From positions 45,753-109,752 of IMG/VR virus record IMGVR_UViG_3300032753_000007: DNA of 64,000 nucleotides. The stretch is one strand, 5' to 3'. The number at the start of each line of letters is the position of its first letter. The stretch's first letter is position 1. Both the position numbers and the translations under genes were made by a program. The notes beneath the pieces were generated by a model that saw nothing but the letters and a program-made list of their open reading frames with translations, searched no databases and had not been told where the DNA came from. Shown piece after piece: positions 4,955 through 54,790 of this stretch. The DNA comes from a virus.

Positions 4955-7900
4955 TTAATAGGTTCTACCACTACTAATAACAGGCGATAGTGTTTGTTTA
5001 GCAGATGATGCATTAGCTACAATAATATTTTGAGCAGGTGTATTTGCTGTTGACTTCATCGTAGTTAATATTTGAGCCAATAGATCATTAGTAGTAGACA
5101 ATTTAGTAAGATGCTCATCATGTCTATTAGCTGAATCTTTATTAGCTTGTACTAATTTATCTTCAATAGGTTTAGTATTGAGTGCTGTTTGTGTAGTAAC
5201 ACTAGATAGCGTTGTTGCACTAGGTACAGGCGGCATATCGTTAGCTGTGCTTGTAGTTGTAGATTTAGATGCAGCTGCAATAGGCGATGTTACCGCATTA
5301 GCTGGCGTTACTGAGGTAGCAGGCGTAGGCATTACACTAGATGTAGGCATTGGTGGCATGTCATTGCTTGCTAGTGATGGGCCATTTCCTTTAGTTGCAA
5401 ATGCATCAGCAGGGGGTAAGCCACCTGTATTAATAGGCACATTTGTATTAGCAATGGCATTACTACTAGACGATACTGCTACTTGATAGGCTTCATCTTC
5501 AGACATGCCTTTAGATAAGTTAGCTTTATATTGCGCTCTACTGACATTCATTGCAGTAATTACACGCTCAGCTGATACTGAAGCTACATTACCATGCCCG
5601 TGCTTACTTCTGCCTGTATTAGGGTCAGCTAAACTCGCCCATTCTTCAGCAGCAGCATTAGCAGCAGCAACTGGATTATCAGTTTTACCTTTAATATAGG
5701 CTGATATTTGAGGTCTTTTTTTATCTAATAAATATTTACTAAATAAGAGTTCTTGTGTTTTAGCATCAAACTTAGTTGTATCTGGATTTAATCCTAATTT
5801 CTTTATGCCGTCTATTAATGTTGGTGGAATCATTTGATACTTACCTACAGCAAATAAACGACGCTCATCATTAGCAGATCTATTCATATCCGCTAGTATT
5901 TCAGATAATGTCATGCTCGTTAAATCACGATTACCTACTGGACCTAAAATCTTATTACCAGAAGTACCACGATTATAAGCGTTATAGCCTTTACTGCCTG
6001 ATTCAGCATTTTTAATTAAACCAGCTAATGAGTTAACTACCGGTTCAACTAAATTAACTTTAGCCCAATCAATGCCTTTACCGGCTGCTGTTTTACCTAA
6101 TGTGTAAAGCTCTTTAGCTTTATCACCTACTTTACCAGCAAAGTCTTTAATAGGATTTAATAAGTTTTCTTTACTCCAATCTACTGCTTGATCAAACATA
6201 GATTTCTTAGGTGTACCATCTGGATTAACGCCTTGCTGTCTATCTCTATCATAGTTAGGTGGTAATACTGGTTTATCTTTATCTAGTTTAGTAACAGTAG
6301 GATGTAAATTAATTGCAGATACTTTCTTTAAGTTATCTGCTTTAGTATCATTATTTCTATTAGCTTGATTCCTAAGTTGTTCTACTAATACGTCAATAGT
6401 ACTTTTATTATCACTTAACGTTATATCATGCCAAGGACTATTTTGTATGCCATAAGGATTCATACCTAAGTTAGCTTCAACAGAACCAAACTGTACTAAG
6501 TTAACAAACTTAATTATATCTTCTTTTTTTAATTCATCGTCAATATTGTCTACTTTACTTTTACCAAATTGCTGTAAGCTAGCTTTATGTTTAATATAAA
6601 CAGGTAAAAACCGTTTATATAACCAGGTATTAAAGTTAGTCTTATCAGTCATGTTGTCATAAGTACAACCAAAATCTTTATAGTACTTTTCCCATACTTC
6701 TTTAGGCAATAAATCTATTTTAGGAATATTTTTAGTGAGTGTAATATGGGGTGTAAAATCAGATTCAAAATTACGCATATCTGCTACTGCTTGACTATTA
6801 TCAATAGGTATACCATATTGTAAAAATCTTAATTTTTCTAAAGGCTCTAATGCTGTTCTATTCATTATATATTTAGTGCCTTTATATAAGCCATAGCCAG
6901 CAGCACCAACAATAATAGCCCAGCCTACTGGATTAGATAACAATAAAGCACTTTCACCTAACGCTGCGCCTGCCACGCCTAACTCACCAACAGTAGCTAG
7001 TCCAGCGCCACCTTCAGCAGCTGCAGTAGCAGCGCCTGCTGCAGTAGCAGCGGCTTCACCGCCAGCTAGTGCTCCAGCTCCAGCTACTCCTGCTGCACCT
7101 GCACCACCAATACCTAAAGCACCTAACGCTTTACCGCCCCAGCCTTTAGCATCTTTTACTAGATCACCTGCTTTACCAAATGCATCTAATATACTACCGC
7201 CAGTAGGAGTCACAATTGGTGCTGGTTTCTTATTAGTAGGTACACCCATTTCACGTAATTTTTTAGCAGTTTCTTGTTTAGCTTTACGTTTTTTAATAAT
7301 GTCTTGAAACCCACCTTCACGATTAGCTTCTTTTTCTTCACTATTTTCAGTAGGCCACTTAGTGCTAATATAGTTTTTAATATCTTTTAGTGTAGTATTA
7401 ATGGTATCTAGTTTATTACTGATCTCATTAACGTTTTCATCTACTGATTTAGTTTTCTTTCTATTTTTAAAGAAGCTGCTAATGCTGCCTACAGGATTTT
7501 TTAATACACCACCTAATTTACTAAACCAATTGCTAGCATCTTTTTTATCAGGTTTTCGTTTACCCATAGCAGCAAATAATAAATTAGACATTACTTGAGT
7601 AGTGCCTGTAAAAGCACCCCAACTTAGTTTACCTAATGTACCTACTGCTCTAGCTGCACGCTTAGGTGCTTTCTTAGCAGACCACCATATTAGATTGCCT
7701 AATAGCTTTGCTGGGAGCAATGCGAGTTTAGCACTACCAATGCCTAATTTAGCAGCTAATGGACCTAATACTTTAGCTACTGTCCAACCAACCTTAGCTA
7801 GTCTTTGTGCTCTTTCAGGGGCTTTCATTAGTTGTCTTTTTAAAAATCCACCACCTTTCCATAATGTTCTGCCTGTAAAGCCTAACATTGTTTTAAGCGG

Positions 7901-10900
7901 ATTATAAGCAGCCATAGCTAAACTAAATGGTAGCTTTGCAAGTGTCCAAGGTATTTTTATTAATGCTCCGCCTTTATCTACTATAAAGCGGCTAATGCCA
8001 GATAAGCGTTTAAATGAATTACCAAATTTAATACCTAAATTTTTACGTATACTAGGATCACCATCTGGAGAAGGGGCTGCATAGCCCGCTGATGGAATGG
8101 TAGCAATAATGGTTTGTAATAGTGTATTAGTGGATGTGCCTGTTTCTGTCAAAACAGTCATTAGATCTTTATGTTGATCTTTTAATTGTTTAGATAATGA
8201 AGTTAATTCATCAGGATTACTGCTATTGAATAAACCATTATGTTTTTGATTATCATCATTATTCCATTTAGGTAAATTTAATTTAGGCAATTCTATTTTA
8301 TTACCGTATTTATCATAGAGCTCAGTGGCATTTGTTTTTAATGCATTTACGCCAGTACTCCATCTATTTTTAATGTTCTCTTTTATATCAGAGCCTTTTA
8401 CTTTTTTTGCTTTATTTTTAATAAGCTCTTTTACTTTATTAACACTGCCATACTTTTCTTTAAGGTTATTAAACGTAGTTTCTCTGTTATCAAAAGCATG
8501 TGTTAATGCAGCATTAATTTGATTAGGTGTTAATCCTTTACTTGTTAAGTTTTCAAATAGTTTTGGATTTTTTTCTTTTATTAAAGTTTCTAAATTTTCT
8601 ACTGTTGGTTTATCCGGTAATTGATCTTTATGTTTATCATAGAAACCACGAATAGCAGTAGTAGCTGTATTAACTAGCTTATCTTTTCTTTCTAATAAAT
8701 TAGTTTGTAAAGCTTTAGCATCAAAAGGCGTATGGATTACCTTATTAGCTTCTTCTAATTTAGTCTTTAATAAATCTTCTATTTCTTTTTTATTAAACCC
8801 ACGTTTTTCTAATTCAGTAAATAGTTTACCACTTTGTGCAGTTAGTTGCTTACCGATTTCTTCAGGTTGTAATTGAGCGGGTATTAAATGTTTATGTTTA
8901 TTATAGAAGGCTTTGCTTTGTTTACTTGCTTCAGTAATGTGTGGTGCAACATGTTTTAATAAACCACTTTTAACATTTTCTATATTTTGAGATAATGGGA
9001 TAGCTGTTAGTTTTCCTTTAGTATCTTGAATATAAGTTGATAGCCCTTTTATCCGCTTACTGCCAGCACTATATACGCTATTTAAATGTTTAGATAATTC
9101 ACTTGGTGTGGAAGTATAATTAATAAATCCAGCACTAGGCATTAAATCAATCATGTTTTGTAGCAGGGCATTATTACTGCTGCTATGTGCTGCTAACGCC
9201 TTTAACATATCGCTATGATTAAAGCTCATTACATTAACTAATGTAGTAATATTATCATTACTAAAATTAACATTAGTAGTAGGCGATATCCCCTCATTAA
9301 TGTTAACTGTAGAGGATGTAGGCAATAATGAATTATTACTAGATAATGGTGTAGGGTGAATGGTTTTACCTGCCATTACTTTCATTCTGGCTTTAGGTGA
9401 TTTATTTTGATCGCCATATAAAGCGTCAATTAAATCCCAACGATATTGTTGATTAACAGCACCTTCATTATTGATTAAATTACCTAATAACTCTTTAGTA
9501 CCTGTTGCATTAGCTTCATTAAGTACGTCACCAAAATTACCCACGCCATATCGCAAAGCATTATAATTTCTGCTAATGTCTTTTTTTAATGTAGCAGTTT
9601 CTATATCATTGCTTGATACAGTCTTTATTCCGTTTTCATTAAACTCTTCAGTAATTTTAAACTTTTCTATAAATAAATTAGCAATTTTATTACGAGATTC
9701 ATATGAGAGTACAGCAGGTAAGTTATCAGGCGATGCATAGTCTATTGGGTCAAAGTTAACACCTTCAACCGCTGATTGTTTCATAAAGAAAATACCTAAA
9801 TATTTTCTTTCATTGGCATTTAGTATATTTTTATCAGGATCAATTAAATCAATGATATAATCAGCATTTGTTTTTAAATCAACACCGACTTCTTTTTTTA
9901 ATAGCTCACTAACTCGTTTTTTAGCACTAGATAACGTAGTAAACTGTTCAGTACGTGTATCAAACGTCAATCGTTCTGCTATTTCACCATTGCCTGATGT
10001 GTAGTTATAGAGTTTAGTTTGTTGTTCTAATATACGAGAAAGATAGCCTGGAATAATCTCTATTAATGAGCGACGTGATATTAAATCCCATGATACTGTT
10101 TCTGTAGCATCACTCATTAAATTCTTATTAACAGATTCGCCTAATGTGCCATTATCGCCACCATTAAATAGCTCGCCTACTGAGCCTACTAATGACCCGT
10201 ATTCTGCATGTTTAACTTTACGATTAATTATACCTGGTAGATCACCAAACCAGCGTGCTAGATCTTGTCCTACTGCATTAGTTTTATTAATGGCGCTAGT
10301 GCCTCTTTCACCAAGCACATTTTCAACATGTTTTTTACCATTCTTTTTTATCCAACCTGCAAATAACTTTCCAAGACCTTCACGCGCTTCATCGCCTGCC
10401 ATACCTGCTGCCATTTCAGCAGCAGATGGCATAAATTCATCCATGCCATCTTCTTGAGGTAAATTAGAATTTATAGCACTAGCAAATTCACTAATTTGTG
10501 TTTTTAGATTATTTTTAATACGATTAGGCATATCACCTAATCGATTACTAATACTCTTTTGTACACTACCAATGATGCGTCGTTTACTTTCATCTCTAAA
10601 CTTTTCAGAATTAGTTACTTTAACTTCATTAGGTAATGCTGTATTTTTAACAACATCAGCTAATAATGTTAATGTTTTACTATTATGAGAAAGCGTATTT
10701 TCTAATATGTCTTGTGTAGCAAAATAATGGAGGTATTGTACTTCTAATGACTTTTTATAATAAGTAGCTAATATCTTATCTTGAAAACCAACTATTCTTC
10801 CAATACCACTAACTATTTTATGCTGATACTCTATACCATGTTGAAATTTAGCTTTATCTAATTTAATGCTATTTAATTGAATAACATCATCGCGCTTTCT

Positions 10901-11428
10901 TTTTAACTTACCTTCAAGTTGTTGAGCACCAAAGATAGTTTCTAATGTATCTTTTAATCCTGTTTCTCTTGTATTTGAAGACCGTCCATAATCGTATGAA
11001 TCGGATTCTTTTCCTACATGAGACATGTCTTTTATTTTATTAGTCACTTTATTAGGTAAGAATTTACCTAATGTAGGGAGTGCTTTTTGTACTTTTTTAT
11101 CAATAACATTTAGCGCAGGTGCAAGTTCTTTTCTTGCATCATCAAACATGCTCTCTGCATCATATTTAAATGACATAATAGAGCTATAAGCGTCGCCGTA
11201 ACTACCTGGTAATACATCTTTAATTAACTTACCTATAAAGCCAATGCCATGCTCTTTTGGATTAAAACTGCTTTTTAATCCTGACGCTATATCGCTAATA
11301 GGTTTGCGATCTTTTTTAATATCAGGATCTGAATCATCAAAATCACCAAATTCAGATCCAAACTCTTTCATAAAGTCATCATAGTCATCATCTAAATCTA
11401 ACTTTATATCATCATCTTTCTTTGCCAT
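4955..11428 (-). CDS. tail tape measure / cell-puncturing protein with muramidase domain (phiKZ gp181-like)
   Basis: 2157 aa; divergent from the vRNAP beta' gene as in the gp180/gp181 pair; Gly/Ala-rich membrane-type segments; lysozyme-like motifs AESG..YNAYN and AVGKYQMIPPTL..FDAKTQ at ~5530-6030. Confidence 0.8.
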   Translation of the reverse strand: MAKKDDDIKLDLDDDYDDFMKEFGSEFGDFDDSDPDIKKDRKPISDIASGLKSSFNPKEHGIGFIGKLIKDVLPGSYGDAYSSIMSFKYDAESMFDDARKELAPALNVIDKKVQKALPTLGKFLPNKVTNKIKDMSHVGKESDSYDYGRSSNTRETGLKDTLETIFGAQQLEGKLKRKRDDVIQLNSIKLDKAKFQHGIEYQHKIVSGIGRIVGFQDKILATYYKKSLEVQYLHYFATQDILENTLSHNSKTLTLLADVVKNTALPNEVKVTNSEKFRDESKRRIIGSVQKSISNRLGDMPNRIKNNLKTQISEFASAINSNLPQEDGMDEFMPSAAEMAAGMAGDEAREGLGKLFAGWIKKNGKKHVENVLGERGTSAINKTNAVGQDLARWFGDLPGIINRKVKHAEYGSLVGSVGELFNGGDNGTLGESVNKNLMSDATETVSWDLISRRSLIEIIPGYLSRILEQQTKLYNYTSGNGEIAERLTFDTRTEQFTTLSSAKKRVSELLKKEVGVDLKTNADYIIDLIDPDKNILNANERKYLGIFFMKQSAVEGVNFDPIDYASPDNLPAVLSYESRNKIANLFIEKFKITEEFNENGIKTVSSNDIETATLKKDISRNYNALRYGVGNFGDVLNEANATGTKELLGNLINNEGAVNQQYRWDLIDALYGDQNKSPKARMKVMAGKTIHPTPLSSNNSLLPTSSTVNINEGISPTTNVNFSNDNITTLVNVMSFNHSDMLKALAAHSSSNNALLQNMIDLMPSAGFINYTSTPSELSKHLNSVYSAGSKRIKGLSTYIQDTKGKLTAIPLSQNIENVKSGLLKHVAPHITEASKQSKAFYNKHKHLIPAQLQPEEIGKQLTAQSGKLFTELEKRGFNKKEIEDLLKTKLEEANKVIHTPFDAKALQTNLLERKDKLVNTATTAIRGFYDKHKDQLPDKPTVENLETLIKEKNPKLFENLTSKGLTPNQINAALTHAFDNRETTFNNLKEKYGSVNKVKELIKNKAKKVKGSDIKENIKNRWSTGVNALKTNATELYDKYGNKIELPKLNLPKWNNDDNQKHNGLFNSSNPDELTSLSKQLKDQHKDLMTVLTETGTSTNTLLQTIIATIPSAGYAAPSPDGDPSIRKNLGIKFGNSFKRLSGISRFIVDKGGALIKIPWTLAKLPFSLAMAAYNPLKTMLGFTGRTLWKGGGFLKRQLMKAPERAQRLAKVGWTVAKVLGPLAAKLGIGSAKLALLPAKLLGNLIWWSAKKAPKRAARAVGTLGKLSWGAFTGTTQVMSNLLFAAMGKRKPDKKDASNWFSKLGGVLKNPVGSISSFFKNRKKTKSVDENVNEISNKLDTINTTLKDIKNYISTKWPTENSEEKEANREGGFQDIIKKRKAKQETAKKLREMGVPTNKKPAPIVTPTGGSILDAFGKAGDLVKDAKGWGGKALGALGIGGAGAAGVAGAGALAGGEAAATAAGAATAAAEGGAGLATVGELGVAGAALGESALLLSNPVGWAIIVGAAGYGLYKGTKYIMNRTALEPLEKLRFLQYGIPIDNSQAVADMRNFESDFTPHITLTKNIPKIDLLPKEVWEKYYKDFGCTYDNMTDKTNFNTWLYKRFLPVYIKHKASLQQFGKSKVDNIDDELKKEDIIKFVNLVQFGSVEANLGMNPYGIQNSPWHDITLSDNKSTIDVLVEQLRNQANRNNDTKADNLKKVSAINLHPTVTKLDKDKPVLPPNYDRDRQQGVNPDGTPKKSMFDQAVDWSKENLLNPIKDFAGKVGDKAKELYTLGKTAAGKGIDWAKVNLVEPVVNSLAGLIKNAESGSKGYNAYNRGTSGNKILGPVGNRDLTSMTLSEILADMNRSANDERRLFAVGKYQMIPPTLIDGIKKLGLNPDTTKFDAKTQELLFSKYLLDKKRPQISAYIKGKTDNPVAAANAAAEEWASLADPNTGRSKHGHGNVASVSAERVITAMNVSRAQYKANLSKGMSEDEAYQVAVSSSSNAIANTNVPINTGGLPPADAFATKGNGPSLASNDMPPMPTSSVMPTPATSVTPANAVTSPIAAASKSTTTSTANDMPPVPSATTLSSVTTQTALNTKPIEDKLVQANKDSANRHDEHLTKLSTTNDLLAQILTTMKSTANTPAQNIIVANASSAKQTLSPVISSGRTY

Positions 11429-11453: not shown

Positions 11454-13550
11454 ATGTTAAGTAAAAAAGAACCCTTTAATATATTTTTATTAAGTAATCA
11501 GAAATCACGTCTGATGGGCCTATTGCCTGTCCAATCAATGGACATTAAAAACATTGGTGGAGAATTTCATCCACAAGGGCTATACAGTATTGAAATATTT
11601 GGTGCACTAGGATCTAGGCAGCGTCAAAATAAACACGCCTATATTGATATGCGCTGTTATGTCATGCATCCTAAAATCTTTAGTGATTTAGAAAAACTAA
11701 AAGGACTCTATGCAGGCATCATGAGTAGAAAACAATATGCATTATGGGATAATAACATAAAAGACTTTGTTAAGGCTGATGCCATTGATGGTAAAACAGG
11801 TTATTCTTTTTTTATGTCTCATTTTGAAGATATTCAGTTTCCACGTAATGAGTCAGGCATACGCGATGCACGTATTGATCTATTAATACAAGAACAAAAA
11901 AAATGTATGTATCGCTATTTAGTTGTATTACCTGCAGGATTAAGAGATTTGACTTATGATGAAAAAGGTCAAGAAGTAGAAGACGAAATTAATCCTATCT
12001 ATAGAAAAATATTACGTACAGCTAATACTATTTTAGTAGATAATAACAACATAAATCCAACAAATATTGATGTGGCTAGATGGACATTACAGACATCATT
12101 TAATGAGCTTTATGATTACATAGAATCAATCCTAAGTGGTAAGAAAGGACTCATATTATCTAAATTAGCAGCACGCGCAGTGCATGGCGGTACACGGGCT
12201 GTATTGACGGCGGCGGATCCATCACCTGCTCATTTAAATGCGCCTGGTGGCTTTACTGTAAATGATACATTAGTGGGTTTACATCAATATATAAAAGGTA
12301 CAGTAGAGTTAACTATTTATGGTATTAAAACAGGGTTAGCTAAAGACATTATTGATAGATTACCTGGTGAAATATCATTAGTTAATAAAAGCACTTTAAC
12401 TAAAATAACATTAAACCCATCAACTGATACAGTTACATTATGGGGTGGCGAAGTAGGATTAGAAAAACTAATTAATAAGTTTGAAAAACCTATTATACGA
12501 CATAACCCTATAATGATTGATGGTCATTATTTAGCTTTGTTATATAGAGATAGTACGCATTTTAAAGTACTGTATGATATTACTGATTTACCTAAAGAGT
12601 TTAATAAAGCTAACGTAAAACCTATTACATGGGCTGAGTTTTTTTATTTAGCTGTTTATGAGCGCGTTAAAGATGTAGCAGTTTATGTTACGCGTTATCC
12701 TATTACTGAATTAGGTAGTATTTATCCATCTATGGTTAAATTACAAACAACTGTACAGTGTGAAAAGCTAATACCATTAGATGATGATTGGAAACCTATA
12801 ACTACTAATGTAAATGAAGTAACTGCCTACGCAATGCCTGTTTTAGGTAAACCCTTTTATGATAGTATCTCTGTACATACTACAAAGCTTCTTGAATTAA
12901 ACGCAGATTATGACGGTGATAAAGTAAATGCTGTATTTGTAATGTCTAAAGAAGCAGTAGATGAAGTAAAAAAATACCATCATACAAAAACTACTTTTTT
13001 AAATAGTAGTGGTAGTTTACGGTATGGTGCTTGTGGTGTTAAAGATCCATTAATTGGCTTGATATTACAAGGACTAACATCCGGTTTAGATAAAGATAAA
13101 ATAATTACTATAGAGCCATTAAAAGAGAGTGAAACTAAAAATTATATTCAGTTAGTTGAACATAAATCACATGACCCTTCATTAGGTGGCATTGTTATTG
13201 ATAAATTAAAAGCTGAATCTATTTATAGTAATTTATCTGATAGTGCTAATATAGGCTATACATTGAAACGAGGTAGTGCTATAGTTGGATTTGCTGTTTT
13301 TATTCGATCAGGCGTTTCTATGTCAGGTGAATTATACTGTATTGTTTTAGATATTTATTCAGGTAATAACTACGGCTATAAAATACTTAAAACATTATTA
13401 AAGCAATTAAAAACACTAGGTGTTAAAGAAGTCATTACTACTGTAGGTAAAGACGCATCTGCTGGTATTGTTTTATGTAAAAAACTAGGCTTTATGTATG
13501 TGCCAATTAAATCACCTAATGTAATAGAATATCGTTTGAGGTTATTATGA
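11454..13550 (+). CDS. rpoC: virion RNA polymerase beta' catalytic subunit (phiKZ gp180-like) with C-terminal GNAT-like domain
   Basis: GLYSIEIFG, VLPAGLRD, LSGKKG, VTRYP and catalytic NADYDGD motifs; last ~150 aa show GNAT motifs A and B. Confidence 0.9.
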   Translation: MLSKKEPFNIFLLSNQKSRLMGLLPVQSMDIKNIGGEFHPQGLYSIEIFGALGSRQRQNKHAYIDMRCYVMHPKIFSDLEKLKGLYAGIMSRKQYALWDNNIKDFVKADAIDGKTGYSFFMSHFEDIQFPRNESGIRDARIDLLIQEQKKCMYRYLVVLPAGLRDLTYDEKGQEVEDEINPIYRKILRTANTILVDNNNINPTNIDVARWTLQTSFNELYDYIESILSGKKGLILSKLAARAVHGGTRAVLTAADPSPAHLNAPGGFTVNDTLVGLHQYIKGTVELTIYGIKTGLAKDIIDRLPGEISLVNKSTLTKITLNPSTDTVTLWGGEVGLEKLINKFEKPIIRHNPIMIDGHYLALLYRDSTHFKVLYDITDLPKEFNKANVKPITWAEFFYLAVYERVKDVAVYVTRYPITELGSIYPSMVKLQTTVQCEKLIPLDDDWKPITTNVNEVTAYAMPVLGKPFYDSISVHTTKLLELNADYDGDKVNAVFVMSKEAVDEVKKYHHTKTTFLNSSGSLRYGACGVKDPLIGLILQGLTSGLDKDKIITIEPLKESETKNYIQLVEHKSHDPSLGGIVIDKLKAESIYSNLSDSANIGYTLKRGSAIVGFAVFIRSGVSMSGELYCIVLDIYSGNNYGYKILKTLLKQLKTLGVKEVITTVGKDASAGIVLCKKLGFMYVPIKSPNVIEYRLRLL

Positions 13551-13813
13551 AAGAAGAGTATAAAATTAAATTATTAGCATTAGTAAAGTTAATAAAAAAA
13601 CGTTTATGTAAATTAGTAGGCTGTAATTTTTCATTAGTTGATGAAGTCACTGTAAACGCTATTAGTAAACACCAATCTTATACTAAATTTACATTAAGCT
13701 GTAAACGCTGTAAAGGTGATATGATGATTGGTATGCTAGTGCCTATTACTGAAATAGAGTTAGAAGATGCTATTTTATTAGAAAAATTTAAAAAGGGGTT
13801 AATTGTAAAATGA
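13547..13813 (+). CDS. small Cys-rich, putative Zn-binding protein
   Basis: 88 aa; LCKLVGC...H...CKRC; ATGA overlaps with both neighbouring RNAP genes. Confidence 0.6.
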   Translation: MKEEYKIKLLALVKLIKKRLCKLVGCNFSLVDEVTVNAISKHQSYTKFTLSCKRCKGDMMIGMLVPITEIELEDAILLEKFKKGLIVK

Positions 13814-35588: not shown

Positions 35589-37739
35589 ATGATTTTATCA
35601 CTAGATGATTGGAAAAGCTATCCAAGTGCCATTGTAGATTTAAATACACGAAATGAATCTTGGATAAGAATGGCTAGTTTATTAAAATTAATGGGTGTTA
35701 AAAACTATTATTTTTTCTTAGCTTTATTACAACCAGAATTACAAGGCGTAGATCCTTATTCTCCTGATCTAACAGACCATCAAAAAACACTAATTAGTTA
35801 TGAAGTAAGATACAATATTTGGTATTTCTTTAGAGAAGTAGTAAGAGTACCTAATGGTAATAACCCACTGCGATATGGGCTTAATCGTGGTAACTTATCT
35901 TTGTATTGGTCTTTTTTGTCAGGCATTGATTATGGTTTAATTATGATTCGTCAAACAGGCAAAACATTAGCCTGTGATGCATTAGAAAATTGGTTACTAT
36001 ATATATACTATCGTAATCAAGATATGTTTTTGTTTACTAAAGATGATAAGTTAAGAAAAAAAAATATATCTAGATTAAAAGACTTACGTGATTTATTACC
36101 TGTCTATTTAATACCTACTTCTAAAAAAGATGTTGATAATTTAGATGAATTGTCGTGTAGTCAAAACGCTGTTTATTATAGAACAAAAGCAGGTCAACCT
36201 GGCAGGCAAGCAGCAGAAAGTGCTGGTCGTGGTTTAACAGCACCTTATGTTAGAATTGATGAAGGCCCCTATATTCCTAATGCGCAGCTTTCTATTCCCG
36301 CTATTATATCTATTACAGGTGCAGCTAGAGAAAATGCTGAAAATGACGGTACGTTATATGGTAACGTTTATATAACGTCAGCAGGTAGATTAGATAGTAC
36401 TGAAGGAAAATACATGTATAATTTTTTAAATTCAGGCATGTATTGGAATGAAACGCTATATGACTGTAAAGATAAATATGAAGCCAGAGAAACAGTCATT
36501 ACTAACAGTGGTGGACGGTGTTTGTTATATGGTACGTTTAATCATAGGCAATTAAGTAAAACTGACGAGTGGTTAAAAAAGCGTATCATGCTAGCGCAGG
36601 ATACAGCAGATGGTATTAATAAAGACTATTTTAATATTTGGGTAAATGGATCAGAATATGGTGCTATTCCATCTAACCTATTAGACATTATTAGAAAGTC
36701 TGAAATAGATCCTCTTTATACAGAAGTCACTACTGATAGATATATCATTAGCTGGTATACCGATAAAAATAATCTAAATGACTATTTAAATAATAATGAT
36801 CACATAATTTCATTAGATAGTAGTCAAGCAGTGGGTAGAGATAGTAATGGATTAGTATTTACAAATGTAATAGACATGGGTGTAACTGCCGTATCACGTG
36901 TTAATGAAGCTAGTTTATTACGCTACGGTGAATGGATAGCGACATTATTAATTAAGTATCCAAGAACTACCTTTGTAATTGAAGCTAAAGACTCTGCAAG
37001 AGGTTTAATTGATACTATAATTGCACGACTAGTAGCAGCTGGCATTGATCCATTTAAACGCATGTATAGCAGTATTGTAGATAACCATAAAGACAAAGAA
37101 ACTGAATTTAGAGAAATCAGTCAAGACTTATATCGTAGACCTGAACATGTCTATATTAAGTATAAAAAATATATAGGGTTTAATACTACTGGTAAGACAA
37201 GACGTTTGTTATACGATACTATATTAAATGACGCAATACGATCAACAGGACATTTAATTAAAGATAAGTGTTTAAGTGATGAGTTAAGAGGGCTCATTAT
37301 TAAAAAAGGTAAAGTAGATCATATGGATGGTGCTCATGATGATTTAGTCATTGCTTGGTTATTAGCCCATTGGTTTATTAAACACACTAAGAATTTAAGT
37401 TATTATGGTATAAATACAATGAAGTGTTTATCAGGTGTAGTAACTGATGGTGCTAGTATTAGTAAAGAAGAAGTTGAAAAAAGAAAACAAATAACGGTAT
37501 TAAATGATGAAATTAATAGTTTAAAACAAGAGTTATTGGTTTCTAATGGCATTATTGATAATATGCGATTAGAAAAAATGTTAGCCTATAAAGTAGGTCA
37601 AGCAAACGCATTAGGCGATAGTACATTAAACTTAGATACCATTATGCGATCTATTGATGAAAATAAAACAAACAAAACATCATTAAGAACGCAATTAAAT
37701 AACTTACAAAACCAAAACCTATATAGACGCCGCTATTAA
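35589..37739 (+). CDS. terL: terminase large subunit
   Basis: Walker A RQTGKT, GRGLT, Walker B VRIDE, nuclease SLDSS and HDDLVIAW motifs. Confidence 0.92.
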   Translation: MILSLDDWKSYPSAIVDLNTRNESWIRMASLLKLMGVKNYYFFLALLQPELQGVDPYSPDLTDHQKTLISYEVRYNIWYFFREVVRVPNGNNPLRYGLNRGNLSLYWSFLSGIDYGLIMIRQTGKTLACDALENWLLYIYYRNQDMFLFTKDDKLRKKNISRLKDLRDLLPVYLIPTSKKDVDNLDELSCSQNAVYYRTKAGQPGRQAAESAGRGLTAPYVRIDEGPYIPNAQLSIPAIISITGAARENAENDGTLYGNVYITSAGRLDSTEGKYMYNFLNSGMYWNETLYDCKDKYEARETVITNSGGRCLLYGTFNHRQLSKTDEWLKKRIMLAQDTADGINKDYFNIWVNGSEYGAIPSNLLDIIRKSEIDPLYTEVTTDRYIISWYTDKNNLNDYLNNNDHIISLDSSQAVGRDSNGLVFTNVIDMGVTAVSRVNEASLLRYGEWIATLLIKYPRTTFVIEAKDSARGLIDTIIARLVAAGIDPFKRMYSSIVDNHKDKETEFREISQDLYRRPEHVYIKYKKYIGFNTTGKTRRLLYDTILNDAIRSTGHLIKDKCLSDELRGLIIKKGKVDHMDGAHDDLVIAWLLAHWFIKHTKNLSYYGINTMKCLSGVVTDGASISKEEVEKRKQITVLNDEINSLKQELLVSNGIIDNMRLEKMLAYKVGQANALGDSTLNLDTIMRSIDENKTNKTSLRTQLNNLQNQNLYRRRY

Positions 37740-43799: not shown

Positions 43800-45965
43800 A
43801 TGAGTGATGCTTTTGTTAAACCACCTGACCACTATCATAGAGACCTAGATATTAAAGGCAATGCTGAGCTAATAGCAGCTAAATATTTACAAGTCAAAAC
43901 AGGACAATCATTTGATGTTTGTTTAGATTTTGTTAAAAAAGAAACAAGTGATAATGGTTTATTTCCGTTAGCGCCTAAACATTTAAAAGTATTAAGAAAA
44001 GATCAAAATCAAGATAGAGTAAAAGACGTTTATAGCATTGATAAGATATTAGGTATAGCAACGCATGAGAAAGCAGCACTAACGGGTAATATGTGCGTGT
44101 ATAGCTCAAATGAAAATATACCATGTAGTACGGCTAATTATATAAATGATAAGTTAAATCTAAGAGCTTCTATTAAAGAGAAAGAAAAGATTGCTGAACA
44201 AGAAGGAAATAAACTATTAGCAATGACCTGTAACAATGGTCAAACTGCTGCAAAGCTATTAAATAACTCAGTATCAGGTGCTAGAGTATCACCTTATAAT
44301 CCCTTACATTTAAAAACAGCACATTCTTCATTAACCTCTACCACTATGTTGTCAGTTAGTTATAGTAACTCATCTACTGAAAGATTCTTATCTGGAAATA
44401 GGCATTATTATAATCTCTCAGTCACTATTGACGCTATCCTATCTGTTACATTAAATACAGATTATCGAGCCTTAGAAGCGACTGTCGTTAAGTATAGGCT
44501 ATATATACCTAATACGTCAGATGTATTTAAAAGCATTAAGCGCTGTAGTAAGTTCTATTGGAAAAATACACATTGGGATGATGAGTTAATAGATATTATT
44601 AACGGATTAACTGATTTAGAAAAATGTGCTTTTTTATATACAGGTGATTTTTTTAATCTCTCTAAACACAATCCAGACTTTGTAAGAGGTTTGTTATTTG
44701 AAGGTATACAGCCTGCTGATACAAATAGAGATATTGATTCAGATGCTATTGTAAAATCTGCTGATGCAGATATTATTGCATTATGTTCAGTATTATGTTC
44801 TGAGTTTTTAACAGGCACAATACCTGCTAAAATTAAAGCAACTAACCCAGAGCAATACAAGTACTTTGCTTGTACTATACTAGATGTTTGTAATTACATG
44901 AATAAATACAGTGATTTGTTTAGCACATTATTTGCTACTGTTAATATGCCATTAATGATTAGTGAGTTTCCTAATTCAATTAGACGCTCTGTAATGGGGT
45001 CTGATACAGATTCTAATATGTTTACTGTACAAGAATGGATAGTTTGGTTATTTGGTAAAGTTATTTTTTCTATTGAATCCACTAAAATAGCACAACTATT
45101 GTGTTACTTAGTATCTGAAGTAACCGCACATTCATTAATATCCTTATCACGCCAATTAGGCGTTAAAGATAAAGAATTATATCGATTAAAAATGAAAAGT
45201 GAATTTAGCTTTGCTATTTATGGTAGAGCAAATAAAGCTAAGCACTATGCTACATTAATGACCTCACGTGAAGGCAATGTATTCTCAACACCTAAGTTTG
45301 AAATTAAAGGTGTGGGATTAAAAGATTCTAAAATACCTAAATCTATTATAGGTCGCTTAGAAGAAGAATTTATTTATTTGTTTACTAAAATAACAAATAA
45401 CAAAGGTATTGATATTTACCTATTATTACAACGGATTGCTAACTTAGAACACTCAATTATGGAAGATTTAAATAAAGGCGATATTCAGTATTTATCAATG
45501 GTTAAAATAGCTAATAAAGAAGCTTATAAAAAACCAATGGCTAGTAAGTACATGCATTATGACTTATGGCAAAATGTTTATGAAAAAAAGTTTGGATCAG
45601 TAGGCGCGCCGCCTTATCAATGCGTTAAAATATCTACTACATTAATTAATAAAACCAGTATAGAAAAATGGATAGCTGCATCAGATAGTAGCTATAGAAA
45701 TGAATTAGAAGAGTGGTTAATTAGAAATAATAAGACATCATTAAAGATGTTATTAGTGCCATTAGAGTTGTTTAAAACAGGATTGCCTAAAGAGTTTTCT
45801 GACTTGATTGATAAACGTAAAATTATAAGTGAGTTAATTTCAGGCTATTATACATTATTAGAAATCATAGGGTTTTATGTACGTAATGAATCCACATCAA
45901 TTCTATTAATGGATGATATAGAATATAGACCAGAATATGGATTACCAGGTGATGAATTAAAATAA
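43800..45965 (+). CDS. family B DNA polymerase, polymerase subunit (phiKZ gp50-like)
   Basis: Q...K...NS.SGA (motif B), SDTDS (motif C), MKSEF, KHY and EIKGV motifs. Confidence 0.9.
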   Translation: MSDAFVKPPDHYHRDLDIKGNAELIAAKYLQVKTGQSFDVCLDFVKKETSDNGLFPLAPKHLKVLRKDQNQDRVKDVYSIDKILGIATHEKAALTGNMCVYSSNENIPCSTANYINDKLNLRASIKEKEKIAEQEGNKLLAMTCNNGQTAAKLLNNSVSGARVSPYNPLHLKTAHSSLTSTTMLSVSYSNSSTERFLSGNRHYYNLSVTIDAILSVTLNTDYRALEATVVKYRLYIPNTSDVFKSIKRCSKFYWKNTHWDDELIDIINGLTDLEKCAFLYTGDFFNLSKHNPDFVRGLLFEGIQPADTNRDIDSDAIVKSADADIIALCSVLCSEFLTGTIPAKIKATNPEQYKYFACTILDVCNYMNKYSDLFSTLFATVNMPLMISEFPNSIRRSVMGSDTDSNMFTVQEWIVWLFGKVIFSIESTKIAQLLCYLVSEVTAHSLISLSRQLGVKDKELYRLKMKSEFSFAIYGRANKAKHYATLMTSREGNVFSTPKFEIKGVGLKDSKIPKSIIGRLEEEFIYLFTKITNNKGIDIYLLLQRIANLEHSIMEDLNKGDIQYLSMVKIANKEAYKKPMASKYMHYDLWQNVYEKKFGSVGAPPYQCVKISTTLINKTSIEKWIAASDSSYRNELEEWLIRNNKTSLKMLLVPLELFKTGLPKEFSDLIDKRKIISELISGYYTLLEIIGFYVRNESTSILLMDDIEYRPEYGLPGDELK

Positions 45966-51191: not shown

Positions 51192-53183
51192 ATGTCAAAT
51201 ACTTATTTTGATGAAGACGATATCTCTAGCTACAAAGCCAATAGAAATACTGCACAACAAGCACAACCACAACAACAAAGACAAGCACCACCGACTGGTA
51301 ATGCTCAAAAGACATTTAACTTTAGAGATTTAAGAGGTGCTGTATTAGCACACATTGGTACCAGTAAAGATGGTAAAACCGCACTGACTACAATGCAACA
51401 AATTACTGAGCAGTTTGTTGCACAAAACGTAGAGCGTCCAGTATCTAAGTTTCTGTTAATTGAAGATCCACAATTATCAGTGACTGCACTCGTAGCGTAC
51501 TTCACACCAGCGAGTACAATTTGCTACTATATGGTTTACTTGTTAGCTGCTAGTGCTCAACCGCCTAGCAACAAAATGATACAAATCCACAATGGCACTA
51601 AAACCATTGAAAAGGATTTTCCAGTGTCCGATTACTTTAATGAGAAAATGCGGGCTGTTGTAGAACATACTCTGAAAACCACACTACAACACAGTGGTGT
51701 TAGTTTTATGGGCATTAGTAACTATGGCATTACTGTTATTCCAAAAGAAGTTAACTTGGAAGACATTAGTGCATTAGCACCATTCTATATTCACATGGTT
51801 TCATCACTGTCAGCTGCTATTTCTATTGGTGGTGGCATTAGTACCTCTAGCTTAACATGTGATAGGTTGCGAATCGAAAACAGAAAGCTTGTAGCACAGT
51901 TTGTATTGACACCAGGTGCTACTTATAGAAGCAGTATTGGACAACCAATGGCAGGTGACTTTACAGTAACAACCAGTTCTGTACCTGTTAATACACGTCA
52001 ATACAGCGATATGATTCATAGTAAACAAGATGAATCTGTTATCACTCATTTAGTGGGATACCTTGATTTTATTAGGATTCCACAACAAAGGCATTTACCA
52101 CAATATGGTGTGCCACAAAATTACTATGAGCCAGGTTATAATCCTGTCATTGTTATTACTGAATTATCGTCATTTGGTAAAACAGCAGTGCCTATTGATA
52201 GTTTGTTAACATTCTTGTTAGCATTGCCATCTGTTATTCCATTGGTTACCGCTGAACAGAAATGGACGCAATTGTTTGCGCCTAATATTGGCACTACAAA
52301 TAAGGCAACACTAGGCGCATTGTCGCTTGAACATAACCTAGAGCCTGGTAAACCCTTTCAGCCTAAAATCACTGAATTGTACCCTGATACTGGTGTATAT
52401 AATCCAGAGATTACAACTATTTCTGAATTTGCTAGAGCTTTTGTCTCTACTACTCCCGTGATTGTCTTAGACATTCTTAACGGTGGCCCATTAATGGGCA
52501 TTTACTATTATATCGTATTTGCCAAACCAGGCACCGAATGCGAACGCATTATATTGCGCGAGCTAGATTCATTCTTTGCTATCACACAAGCAGATGGTAG
52601 CGTTGTAAACGATGTGTTTACTCGACTATGGCAAGCTGCAGGTAGCCCTTGTATCATTGCTCAAAATAGAAATACAAAGGTTCCTGATGAACCTACCATT
52701 ATTCATGCGGCTACTGTTATTACAGGCGATAAATCATTTGGTGATGCAAGTGAAAGCATTCTTGATATTCGTAGCTGTGATTACCTATCAGTACTGGAAA
52801 GAAGCAATGGTAATAAAGAAGTCATTGATGCATATAGCTGTGGCTATGTGCCAGGTACTTACAGCGATGAAGAGTTGGACATGAAACGAAATATCTTGAA
52901 AAATATGTTTGCCAATTTGAACATTACTGGTAAAATTACCAGAGTACACTTAAACAACGCTTTCATTTCAGTGATTGAAGAAGCGTTGAAAGTAGCCAAC
53001 ATCATTTATCAAGTAGAAGGTCTACAAGACTCAATGGCATTTAGTAATGAACGCCATTACTTTGATCCAGATAGCGTAAACGTACCGTTGAAAACACACG
53101 GCGCGTTTAACGCTTGGGCAAACAACCCCAATACTCCTCCTACTGGATTTAACAATCCGTTTATGAACTCGATGTACAGATAA
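51192..53183 (+). CDS. chmA: chimallin, major phage nuclear shell protein (phiKZ gp54-like)
   Basis: 663 aa; immediately upstream of nvRNAP beta'; disordered Q-rich N-terminus, GYLDF, P.IVIT, DIRSCDYL and ITGKITRV segments; aromatic/Asn-rich tail; own promoter and terminator. Confidence 0.8.
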   Translation: MSNTYFDEDDISSYKANRNTAQQAQPQQQRQAPPTGNAQKTFNFRDLRGAVLAHIGTSKDGKTALTTMQQITEQFVAQNVERPVSKFLLIEDPQLSVTALVAYFTPASTICYYMVYLLAASAQPPSNKMIQIHNGTKTIEKDFPVSDYFNEKMRAVVEHTLKTTLQHSGVSFMGISNYGITVIPKEVNLEDISALAPFYIHMVSSLSAAISIGGGISTSSLTCDRLRIENRKLVAQFVLTPGATYRSSIGQPMAGDFTVTTSSVPVNTRQYSDMIHSKQDESVITHLVGYLDFIRIPQQRHLPQYGVPQNYYEPGYNPVIVITELSSFGKTAVPIDSLLTFLLALPSVIPLVTAEQKWTQLFAPNIGTTNKATLGALSLEHNLEPGKPFQPKITELYPDTGVYNPEITTISEFARAFVSTTPVIVLDILNGGPLMGIYYYIVFAKPGTECERIILRELDSFFAITQADGSVVNDVFTRLWQAAGSPCIIAQNRNTKVPDEPTIIHAATVITGDKSFGDASESILDIRSCDYLSVLERSNGNKEVIDAYSCGYVPGTYSDEELDMKRNILKNMFANLNITGKITRVHLNNAFISVIEEALKVANIIYQVEGLQDSMAFSNERHYFDPDSVNVPLKTHGAFNAWANNPNTPPTGFNNPFMNSMYR

Positions 53184-53251: not shown

Positions 53252-54790
53252 ATGCCAGGATATTTAGAAATAACGGATATGGATGCGTTATTTAAATTAT
53301 GTAAATCACCAATAATCATTAATGATTTGCCCAATACCACAAAAGAAGAAAGAGCTGCTTTTGATTCAGTCATTTATACGCGATTAGGTGATACAGAAAT
53401 ATTATCTAATACACCTACTTGTTCCTGTGGGGTTTTAAATGAAGGTAAAGAGTTAAATAGAATTTGTCCTAAATGTGGAACTGAAGTTCTCTATCCTAAT
53501 GAAAGTGATATTGAGTTTACTAATTGGATGCGTATTCCTGAACCATTAGATGGCTTTATAACACCAGTTGTATTTCATCGTTTACATATGGCATTAGGTG
53601 GTGGTAAGTATTCGTTATTAAATTATTTATTAGAAAGTAAATCAGAGCCCCCACCTAATGCTCAAAAAGTATTATTATCTAAAATAGCATACATTAATAA
53701 ATTAGGTTTTCCAAGAGGTTATAATAACTTCATTAGAAACTTTGATTGGTTTTTAGAAATCTATCCTACGATTAGTAATAAGAAATCCAAACATAAGCCA
53801 GATAGTTATGGTGAAATATTAAAAAAATTTAAAGACAGATTATTTCCTAAGCATTTAGCATTGCCTTCTAAAACAATGCTAATCTTAAAAGAAACACAAC
53901 TAAAATCATATGCTGATAAGAATACGATGTTAGGTGCTATTGATGGCATTAGAACATTAACATCTATCTATAAACGACGTACTAGACCTTTATCAGAATA
54001 TTTGATTGAAAAGAAAGTCGTTAGCATTTTGTTTAACTTAGCTAAATACTATAACAATACCATACGCTTATCTTTTTGTCAAAAGAAAGGCTGGTTTAGA
54101 TATCATTTAGGTTCGTCTAAAAGTCAGTTTTGTTGTAGAGCAGTTATTGTGTCGTTATCTGAACCGCATTGTGTGCGTGAAATGCATATTCCTTGGGCTC
54201 AGGGTTTAGAATTACTCAAAATTCATATATGCTCAGTCCTGTTAAGAAGAGGCTGGCACCCTATTGATATATTAGCATATATTAATAGTCATCATACCGT
54301 GTATGATAAAATGTTAGATGATATCATGAAAGAACTTATTTATGAGTCATTAAAACCAGAAGATTTAGATGATGTCAGTGGAATAGATAAATTAATGTTA
54401 GCTAAAAATCCTAACTGTACTGATGTATTTCCTGATCATGGTATGCCCTGTTACTTTCCACGTGAAGGTTTACCGGTTATATTTCAACGTAATCCTTCAC
54501 TATCACGATTAAGTGCACAAATGCTTTATATTACGCGTATAAAGACAGATGTAAATGATCATACCATTTCGTGGAGTGAGCTATTAACAAAAGGCCCTAA
54601 TGCGGATTACGATGGTGATGCTATGCACTTTTATATGGTATTAGGTAAAAAGCATTATGATGCAGCTAGATTATTAGAAACACAATTTGGCATTCATGAT
54701 AAAAGAAAATTAGGGCGCATTAGTCGTGACGCATCATTACCTGACGTAGTGGTATCAACTATTGCAAATTGGTGTAATTATGAACGATAA
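53252..54790 (+). CDS. rpoC: non-virion RNA polymerase beta' N-terminal/catalytic subunit (phiKZ gp55-like)
   Basis: Zn finger CSCG...CPKC; KKGWFR, RAVI, QRNPSL and NADYDGD motifs. Confidence 0.9.
   Translation: MPGYLEITDMDALFKLCKSPIIINDLPNTTKEERAAFDSVIYTRLGDTEILSNTPTCSCGVLNEGKELNRICPKCGTEVLYPNESDIEFTNWMRIPEPLDGFITPVVFHRLHMALGGGKYSLLNYLLESKSEPPPNAQKVLLSKIAYINKLGFPRGYNNFIRNFDWFLEIYPTISNKKSKHKPDSYGEILKKFKDRLFPKHLALPSKTMLILKETQLKSYADKNTMLGAIDGIRTLTSIYKRRTRPLSEYLIEKKVVSILFNLAKYYNNTIRLSFCQKKGWFRYHLGSSKSQFCCRAVIVSLSEPHCVREMHIPWAQGLELLKIHICSVLLRRGWHPIDILAYINSHHTVYDKMLDDIMKELIYESLKPEDLDDVSGIDKLMLAKNPNCTDVFPDHGMPCYFPREGLPVIFQRNPSLSRLSAQMLYITRIKTDVNDHTISWSELLTKGPNADYDGDAMHFYMVLGKKHYDAARLLETQFGIHDKRKLGRISRDASLPDVVVSTIANWCNYER

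Follow-up and report, generated by a model that had tools for sequence, protein, structure and literature searches.

The window analysed here is a 64,000-nucleotide stretch (positions 45,753 to 109,752) of the IMG/VR virus record IMGVR_UViG_3300032753_000007, a 109,752-base viral contig from lake water with an estimated completeness of 41%. Within it, a single uninterrupted open reading frame (ORF, 11454..13550) joins the catalytic β′-N subunit of a phiKZ-type virion RNA polymerase (vRNAP) in frame to a complete GNAT-fold domain. We consider it probable, though far from assured, that a RimI-like GNAT was joined long ago to the natural C-terminus of β′-N, that this old fusion, with its identical junction, is common to several lineages of one uncultured jumbo-phage clade, and that the copy in the window, carried by the vRNAP, has become weakened or chemically altered. 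The β′-N C-terminus would accordingly be an attachment point for accessory enzymes, namely GNAT, the inorganic pyrophosphatase InPase and mixed arrays of the two.

Identity of the polymerase subunit

The 698-residue protein aligns with phiKZ gp180 at 35% identity over residues 7–485 (E 4e-96), and the 539-position profile of phrog_2986 (RNA polymerase beta subunit) matches residues 4–525 with an E-value of 8.7e-171. The score against phrog_2986 is 570 bits, compared with 36 bits against phrog_2987, the family of a paralog encoded elsewhere in the window (53252-54790), which itself gave no match to gp180 on direct comparison. The catalytic DxDGD motif is present in the core. A divergent gp181-like gene lies upstream and a gp178-like β gene follows, as in phiKZ, and the same order is found in Proteus phage 10, Salmonella phage SA002, Pseudomonas phage D6 and related metagenomic loci. 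The assignment to the virion rather than the non-virion polymerase is made because of the gp180 orthology, the synteny and the separate phrog_2987 paralog beside a chimallin-like gene. By these sequence comparisons the ORF is the virion-polymerase catalytic β′-N subunit of a nucleus-forming phiKZ-type phage; the initial annotation, made from the letters and translations of this DNA, had already read it as the catalytic β′ subunit of a virion RNA polymerase, and the orthology, the profile match and the conserved synteny agree with it.

The C-terminal extension and its junction

In all 313 GenBank jumbo-phage records with a homolog, the alignment stops at query residues 522–548 and the annotated genes end there; in an alignment that includes P0007 and P0009, unfused homologs terminate at the equivalent of residues 543–548. 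Unfused metagenomic homologs end with “...FTRGLQ”, whereas the window protein runs from “...LTSGLDKDK” straight into “IITIEP...”, where the added domain has its first strand, with no linker between core and GNAT. About 150 residues (549–698) are therefore surplus to the unfused form, and the in-frame extension beyond the polymerase fold, previously placed at about residue 550, is confirmed by the homolog end points. The C-terminal 168 residues found no match by tblastn in 50,697 phage records.

The junction itself is reproduced in other data. In three other lake-water runs (X3, X4 and X5), Logan contigs span position 13098 with 0 differences, a comparison of contigs rather than raw reads in which minority variants at the junction would escape. 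In addition, P0003, encoded on a 200-kb contig from another assembly, is 95% identical to the window protein and carries the same fusion. Continuity across the junction, which the initial annotation had singled out for verification, is supported by both.

Amino-acid divergence between the window protein and P0003 is 4.9% in the core (including a 3-residue deletion) and 4.7% in the GNAT, where the seven changes are all substitutions, mostly conservative, and the frame is intact. The GC content at third codon positions is 14% in the extension and ∼18% in the rest of the genome, as in ameliorated sequence. The core-like divergence, the intact frame and the near-genome composition therefore indicate that the extension is not a recent or decaying insertion. 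To judge from these substitutions, the GNAT fold is under constraint in the window lineage, and its core-like rate suggests that it is still useful. The only indel between the two proteins is the absence from P0003 of C-G-V (residues 527–529, positions 13032–13040), about 20 residues before the junction. No S/A/G-x-E motif, which we take to be the phiKZ prohead-protease site, was seen at the junction on inspection by eye, which does not amount to a test.

Fold of the extension

The extension is a complete GNAT-fold domain. When searched alone, the C-terminal 168 residues match Pfam Acetyltransf_1 (PF00583) at 22.7 bits (E 1.3e-4), above the gathering cut-off of 20.7 bits; the score is 23.3 bits in a six-frame search of the genome and 19.4 bits, under the cut-off, with the whole 698-residue protein. 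PHROG acetyltransferase families also match the extension (E 3.7e-5 and 4.3e-4). When 1.84 billion representatives were searched exhaustively with phmmer, only P0003 and two bona fide GNATs were returned with E below 1e-3, the best GNAT match outside P0003 being the RimI-like P0004 at 34% identity. Features from the ESM language model gave 0.97 to GNAT clusters, with the best ten matches all belonging to GNAT families.

The structure of the domain was predicted with AlphaFold2 (AF2) from a 77-sequence alignment, with 75 RimI-like GNATs gathered from genome contigs. The model has a mean predicted local distance difference test score (pLDDT) of 84 and a predicted template modelling score (pTM) of 0.81, and its order of elements, β1-α1-α2-β2-β3-β4-α3-β5-α4-β6-β7, is that of a canonical GNAT. 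Foldseek matched it to solved GNATs (RimI, SpeG and phosphinothricin acetyltransferases) with E ∼1e-10 and template modelling (TM) scores of 0.7–0.8. The earlier claim of a complete GNAT domain, for which a structure comparison had been proposed, is thus upheld by Pfam, PHROGs, phmmer, ESM, AF2 and Foldseek alike.

Several searches yielded little. AF2 applied to all 698 residues without an alignment gave a pLDDT of 33 and no usable model, the GNAT matches of the full-length protein among PDB sequences all stayed below threshold in phmmer (E 0.3–0.5), and a profile search with the query and P0004 returned P0004 as its sole match. No relatives came to light when metagenome contigs of IMG/VR and JGI were scanned for peptide patterns, taken either from the domain or from the entire protein; an alignment-based scan succeeded.

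In a separate Foldseek search of BFVD, the model matched viral GNATs, including, at TM ∼0.56–0.73, podovirus proteins named “internal virion protein A”. As far as comparison of models goes, this hints that GNAT-fold proteins may be packaged in other phage groups too.

Departures from the GNAT motifs

The motif A loop binds the pyrophosphate of coenzyme A (CoA), and RimI-type enzymes ordinarily use the motif B Tyr as general acid. In the window protein and P0003, motif A reads S-G-N-N-Y-G (residues 636–641), with the last Gly kept and the loop length unchanged, whereas Q/R/H-x-x-G-Y-G/N is found in all of the nine other fused GNATs aligned. Likewise, motif B reads A668-S-A-G671-I-V-L-C675-K-K-L-G-F in the window protein and P0003 and N-x-x-A-I-x-L-Y-x-x-x-G-F in each of those nine. 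Relative to the conserved residues, the fourth-position Gly of motif A has become Asn639, while in motif B Ala668 replaces the Asn and Cys675 the Tyr; Gly671 stands where the other fused GNATs aligned have a conserved Ala. The domain also departs from the general motif A pattern, Q/R-x-x-G-x-G/A. Across 76 aligned sequences the RimI-like Asn, Tyr and β5 Glu are at least 90% conserved, and the window has Ala668, Cys675 and Thr663 in their places. Substitution of the motif B Asn and of one motif A Gly had been noticed in the initial annotation and is borne out, the change of Tyr to Cys675 being a further loss.

Because the motif A Gly and the motif B Asn and Tyr are replaced, the window copy is unlikely to be a standard acetyltransferase; more probably it is an acyltransferase of reduced activity or changed chemistry, or a module that binds a ligand or a protein. 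In the case of changed chemistry, Cys675 could act as proton donor or acyl acceptor. By its motifs, the window copy is the least canonical among the fused examples.

Fused relatives

Relatives were sought with the core alone (residues 1–548), which yielded 704 homologs. Six of them (P0008, P0010, P0016, P0018, P0024 and P0052) consist of core plus GNAT, with total lengths of 692–700 residues and the GNAT at residues 545–690, where Pfam detects it with E-values of 2.6e-9 to 1.4e-15. The cores of the fused relatives are 45–52% identical to that of the window, the position of the junction is the same, and the gp181-like neighbour is retained beside their genes. Grouped at 90% identity, the gp180 homologs that bear a GNAT at this junction form at least six clusters besides that of the window.

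Other domains occur at the same site. P0037 (L087:3980-7624, 1214 residues) comprises core, GNAT, InPase (PF18823, E 2.9e-49) and a weak second GNAT, and P0028 (1000 residues) comprises core and InPase. The second exon of L088 encodes the core C-terminus, InPase, GNAT and a tail with a DLDGTL motif, which looks HAD-like by eye only, Pfam giving no confirmation. The idea that the fusion might be restricted to this lineage is contradicted by the additional clusters with a GNAT at the same junction and by the InPase and InPase plus GNAT arrays. The alternative raised with it, that the fusion is both widespread and described, holds in part: the fusion recurs in uncultured relatives, but no description was found in the literature searched. 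It is absent from cultured phage records (50,697 records, 313 of them with a gp180-type homolog).

Some C-termini are longer than their recognised domains. Beyond their InPase or second GNAT, P0037 and P0028 continue for ∼150–280 residues that match nothing in Pfam, and P0023 (637 residues) ends in a 92-residue tail matching no family. These sequences may hold further cargo domains at the β′-N C-terminus.

In the tree of the core, the fused forms fall within one 34-row subclade (support 90 in the Shimodaira–Hasegawa-like approximate likelihood ratio test, SH-aLRT), which lies inside the starred 36-row clade and also holds unfused forms. Except for that of the window, the fused GNATs are mutual best matches, ahead of cellular GNATs. 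A profile built from the fused GNATs without the window lineage detects the window domain at 28.6 bits. We favour one old fusion followed by losses over independent gains, because of the identical junction and the nesting of the fused forms in the core tree.

Gene prediction at these loci deserves a comment of its own. Among the 120 gp180 homologs listed, 26 end ∼50–60 residues early, mostly right at DxDGD. In L085 and L089 an Rfam group I intron (RF00028, 77 and 86 bits) lies just past the truncated gp180 homolog; the intron-split loci are L085:5474-5960, L089:∼5500-6950 and L088:5456-6115, with the remainder of the subunit forming a second exon. The phiKZ locus (L162:6159-7786), in which the annotated gp180 (490 residues) is followed by gp179 and a 500-nucleotide gap, has a layout like that of the intron-split homologs. 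Because of this split layout, gene callers truncate the subunit and miss C-terminal cargo domains.

Proposed role and alternatives

In phiKZ, gp180 with mCherry at its N-terminus still assembles with gp178, gp80 and gp149 and enters the virion at ∼7–10 copies; in the newly infected cell it is seen together with the injected DNA (PMC10612078). The vRNAP of Goslar (gp196), once injected, remains beside the DNA within an early infection vesicle that is enclosed by a membrane and active in transcription (PMC10541120). By analogy, and since subunits of the gp180 type enter the virion (about 10 copies in phiKZ) and are injected along with the DNA, the GNAT of the window would most likely travel as covalent cargo, first in the capsid and then in the early infection vesicle. 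In the relatives, InPase would clear the pyrophosphate (PPi) released by transcription within a vesicle that has no host pyrophosphatase. Confinement to the vesicle makes cytoplasmic host targets less likely for an injected, tethered GNAT, unless it were cleaved off and exported, an event to which no observation made here points.

The sequence analysis shows the fusion, the fold, the orthology, the distribution and the loss of residues; packaging, site of action and activity are inferred from them and from phiKZ-type phages. Several points weigh against the reading of an old, vRNAP-borne and now altered GNAT. The AF2 alignment was composed of GNATs picked for similarity, so that the fold of the model is partly inherited from it; the other evidence for a GNAT is independent of that choice. 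The match between the window GNAT and the other fused GNATs is weak (21–29 bits), and its shared origin with them would be argued mainly from the identity of the junction and from its place in the phylogeny. At least four gains or losses of the GNAT are required on the core tree with intron-split genes unscored, a count that is unreliable in that 24 “short” rows represent gene calls covering exon 1 alone, which leave the C-terminus unread, and that intron-split homologs were scored only where loci were available. Packaging of the full-length protein is argued from phiKZ and Goslar. Finally, GNAT catalytic residues differ between subfamilies, and Cys could substitute for Tyr as proton donor.

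A tentative alternative is that the domain is a pseudoenzyme whose fold is retained only for structure or binding; it might sense CoA or acyl-CoA, attach the polymerase to proteins of the inner body or portal during packaging, or contact another vRNAP subunit. Three motif residues are lost while the fold and a core-like constraint are retained, as such a role would suggest, and unfused gp180 homologs work without the domain in most phages, so that it is accessory. Enzymatic roles are nevertheless indicated by the relatives, which keep the canonical motifs and pair the GNAT with a true enzyme, InPase, and CoA could still be protonated by a Cys in place of the Tyr. There is overlap between this alternative and our preferred explanation, which allows for a window copy with or without activity.

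Somewhat unlikely, in our estimate, is a more specific role for the β′-N C-terminus as a docking site for enzymes that service transcription in a sealed, capsid-derived early infection vesicle lacking host housekeeping enzymes. There, InPase would remove PPi at the channel mouth, whereas polyamines bound to DNA, proteins injected alongside, the nascent RNA or the polymerase would be the substrates of the GNAT, and the Cys-for-Tyr change in the window would mark a re-tuned rather than a dead enzyme. The C-terminus lies ∼40 residues beyond a weak Pfam match to Rpb1 domain 2, at what we presume from general polymerase architecture to be the beginning of the pore and secondary channel.

It is unlikely that the domain is a fully active acetyltransferase effector, delivered with the polymerase to acetylate host RNA polymerase, Cas or other defence or transcription proteins early in infection. 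Its fold and nearest sequence relatives are those of RimI-like protein acetyltransferases and it evolves as slowly as the polymerase core, but it has lost the motif A Gly and the motif B Asn and Tyr that every other fused copy aligned keeps, and the S/A/G-x-E sequence assumed above to be the protease site was not seen by eye at the junction. Stand-alone phage GNATs that target host proteins are known, such as Rac (PMC7552054), but tethering to the vRNAP would keep the domain with the DNA inside the early infection vesicle (PMC10541120).

Action in the producer cell, where the GNAT on late cytoplasmic vRNAP would modify vRNAP subunits, virion proteins or host proteins before packaging, appears quite improbable. 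In phiKZ, gp180 reaches ∼3000 copies per cell by 30 min and stays in the cytoplasm, outside the phage nucleus (PMC10612078). Acetyl-CoA is available in the cytoplasm and RimI-like relatives acetylate protein N-termini, but the co-fused InPase of the relatives suits the site of transcription better than that of assembly. An artefact, through merging of two genes by assembly or sequencing error or through chance similarity to GNATs, might be suspected from a metagenome-assembled contig of 41% estimated completeness and a borderline whole-protein Pfam score (19.4 against a cut-off of 20.7), but is effectively refuted by the contigs of three other runs that cross the junction without differences, by uninterrupted fusion at the same point in P0003 and at least eight more distant homologs, and by the agreement of independent methods on a GNAT.

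Relation to known systems

The window protein resembles phiKZ gp180 in its core sequence, its DxDGD motif, its gp181-like neighbour and the downstream gp178-like β gene, the partners of gp180 in the phiKZ vRNAP being gp178, gp149 and gp80. It differs from gp180 and the 313 GenBank jumbo-phage homologs in having a C-terminal domain; moreover, annotated phiKZ gp180 stops at residue 490, before gp179, whereas the gene in the window is uninterrupted. The fused relatives P0052, P0016, P0008, P0010, P0037/L087, L088 and P0028 share the gene, the junction and the synteny, but their GNATs keep the canonical motif A and B residues that the window protein and P0003 have lost.

Among cellular proteins, the RimI-like GNATs (Brucella RimI, 4j3g/4jwp), SpeG and phosphinothricin acetyltransferases are alike in fold and length, and RimI-like GNATs share the α4 KKLGF segment with the window domain. 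RimI-like GNATs are free-standing, whereas the window domain is fused and lacks the near-invariant Asn, Tyr and β5 Glu. Rac of LUZ19 is likewise a phage GNAT tied to transcription takeover, although it is reportedly free-standing, produced early in the cytoplasm and not packaged; no specific sequence relationship to the window domain was seen, and no search aimed at one was made. Rac of this phiKMV-like phage acts early and causes the α subunit of the host RNA polymerase to be cleaved, and phiKMV-like phages use the host polymerase early in infection (PMC7552054). Stand-alone GNATs are common in jumbo phages (PMC7824862).

A close conceptual parallel is with polyvalent proteins, which are virion-packaged and multidomain and combine RimI-like GNAT, InPase, ART and peptidase domains and in some cases an N4-type virion RNA polymerase; InPase–GNAT associations were described among them, and InPase was proposed to clear PPi for early transcription (Iyer et al., 2017, PMC5512222). 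The same domain repertoire would here ride on a packaged, injected carrier, with GNAT in the window and InPase, with or without GNAT, in the relatives. The carriers differ, however, being MuF, portal or N4-type single-subunit polymerase in polyvalent proteins and a multisubunit phiKZ-type vRNAP subunit here, and the window protein has only two domains, no processing peptidase domain having been seen. We therefore draw on polyvalent proteins for analogy without counting the window protein among them, although the three- to four-domain relatives would fit the repertoire. Enzyme domains fused to a multisubunit phiKZ-type vRNAP subunit were not described in the literature searched, in line with the initial annotation, which knew of no vRNAP–GNAT fusion. 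The fusion is not wholly unprecedented in concept, as virion-packaged polyvalent proteins with GNAT and InPase are already known (PMC5512222).

The main interest of the finding lies in the clade-wide pattern of GNAT, InPase and arrays at one attachment point. It would extend the principle of polyvalent proteins, in which ready-made enzymes are delivered with the DNA, to a multisubunit virion RNA polymerase, with the β′-N C-terminus as a natural cargo site; the packaging and injection of mCherry-gp180, although tagged at its N-terminus, fit this proposal. It bears on how nucleus-forming jumbo phages carry out early transcription in a vesicle cut off from host enzymes, as the fusions name activities (GNAT and inorganic pyrophosphatase) apparently needed at the first step of infection, and the constructs are directly testable. 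The relatives with canonical motifs (P0052, P0016 and P0037) would be better biochemical starting points than the degenerate window copy.

Genome neighbourhood

The features of the window discussed here are collected in Table 1. The chimallin-like gene and the adjoining non-virion β′-N paralog mark the phage, by their sequence families, as nucleus-forming and phiKZ-type; we take phiKZ gp54 and gp55 to stand in the same order.

Table 1. Positions of the fused subunit, its parts and neighbouring genes in the window.
Feature	Position	Strand	Basis or remark
vRNAP β′-N with C-terminal GNAT-fold domain, whole ORF, 698 aa	11454..13550	+	Uninterrupted; phiKZ gp180 ortholog
RNA polymerase core, aa 1–548	11454..13097	+	phrog_2986, E 8.7e-171; end points of unfused homologs
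NADYDGD catalytic Mg-binding motif, aa 483–489	12900..12920	+	Sequence; weak Pfam RNA_pol_Rpb1_2 match at aa 472–507
GNAT-fold domain, aa 549–698, β1 ITIEP to C-terminus	13098..13547	+	Pfam, PHROGs, phmmer, ESM, AF2, Foldseek
Degenerate motif A, pyrophosphate-binding loop, S636-G-N-N-Y-G641	13359..13376	+	Family alignment
Motif B region, A668 to C675	13455..13478	+	Family alignment
88-aa Cys-rich orphan ORF	13547..13813	+	Between gp180-like and β genes
vRNAP β subunit, phiKZ gp178-like, 1316 aa	13810..17760	+	phrog_3148, 1128.7 bits
2157-aa phiKZ gp181-like virion/tail protein, lysozyme-type C-terminal part	4955..11428	-	phrog_3201; synteny anchor
Chimallin-like nuclear shell protein	51192-53183	+	phrog_4795
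Non-virion RNA polymerase β′-N paralog	53252-54790	+	phrog_2987; adjoins chimallin-like gene

The 88-residue ORF at 13547-13813 shares with the GNAT the inserted stretch that separates the gp180-like gene from the β gene. Its start overlaps the stop of the GNAT and its stop overlaps the start of β, in both cases as ATGA, and it encodes two Cys pairs, C-x4-C and C-x2-C. It belongs to no Pfam or PHROG family and has no homolog in 76 related loci.

A search of the 110-kb record of the window for InPase (PF18823) gave no match, and the control search likewise matched nothing anywhere. Elsewhere in the window, terminase large subunit profiles match only the first ∼230 residues of a 716-residue ORF (35589-37739, + strand), the match to phrog_2 covering positions 58–220 of 807. 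From this partial coverage, the terminase-like gene may be split or carry an insertion.

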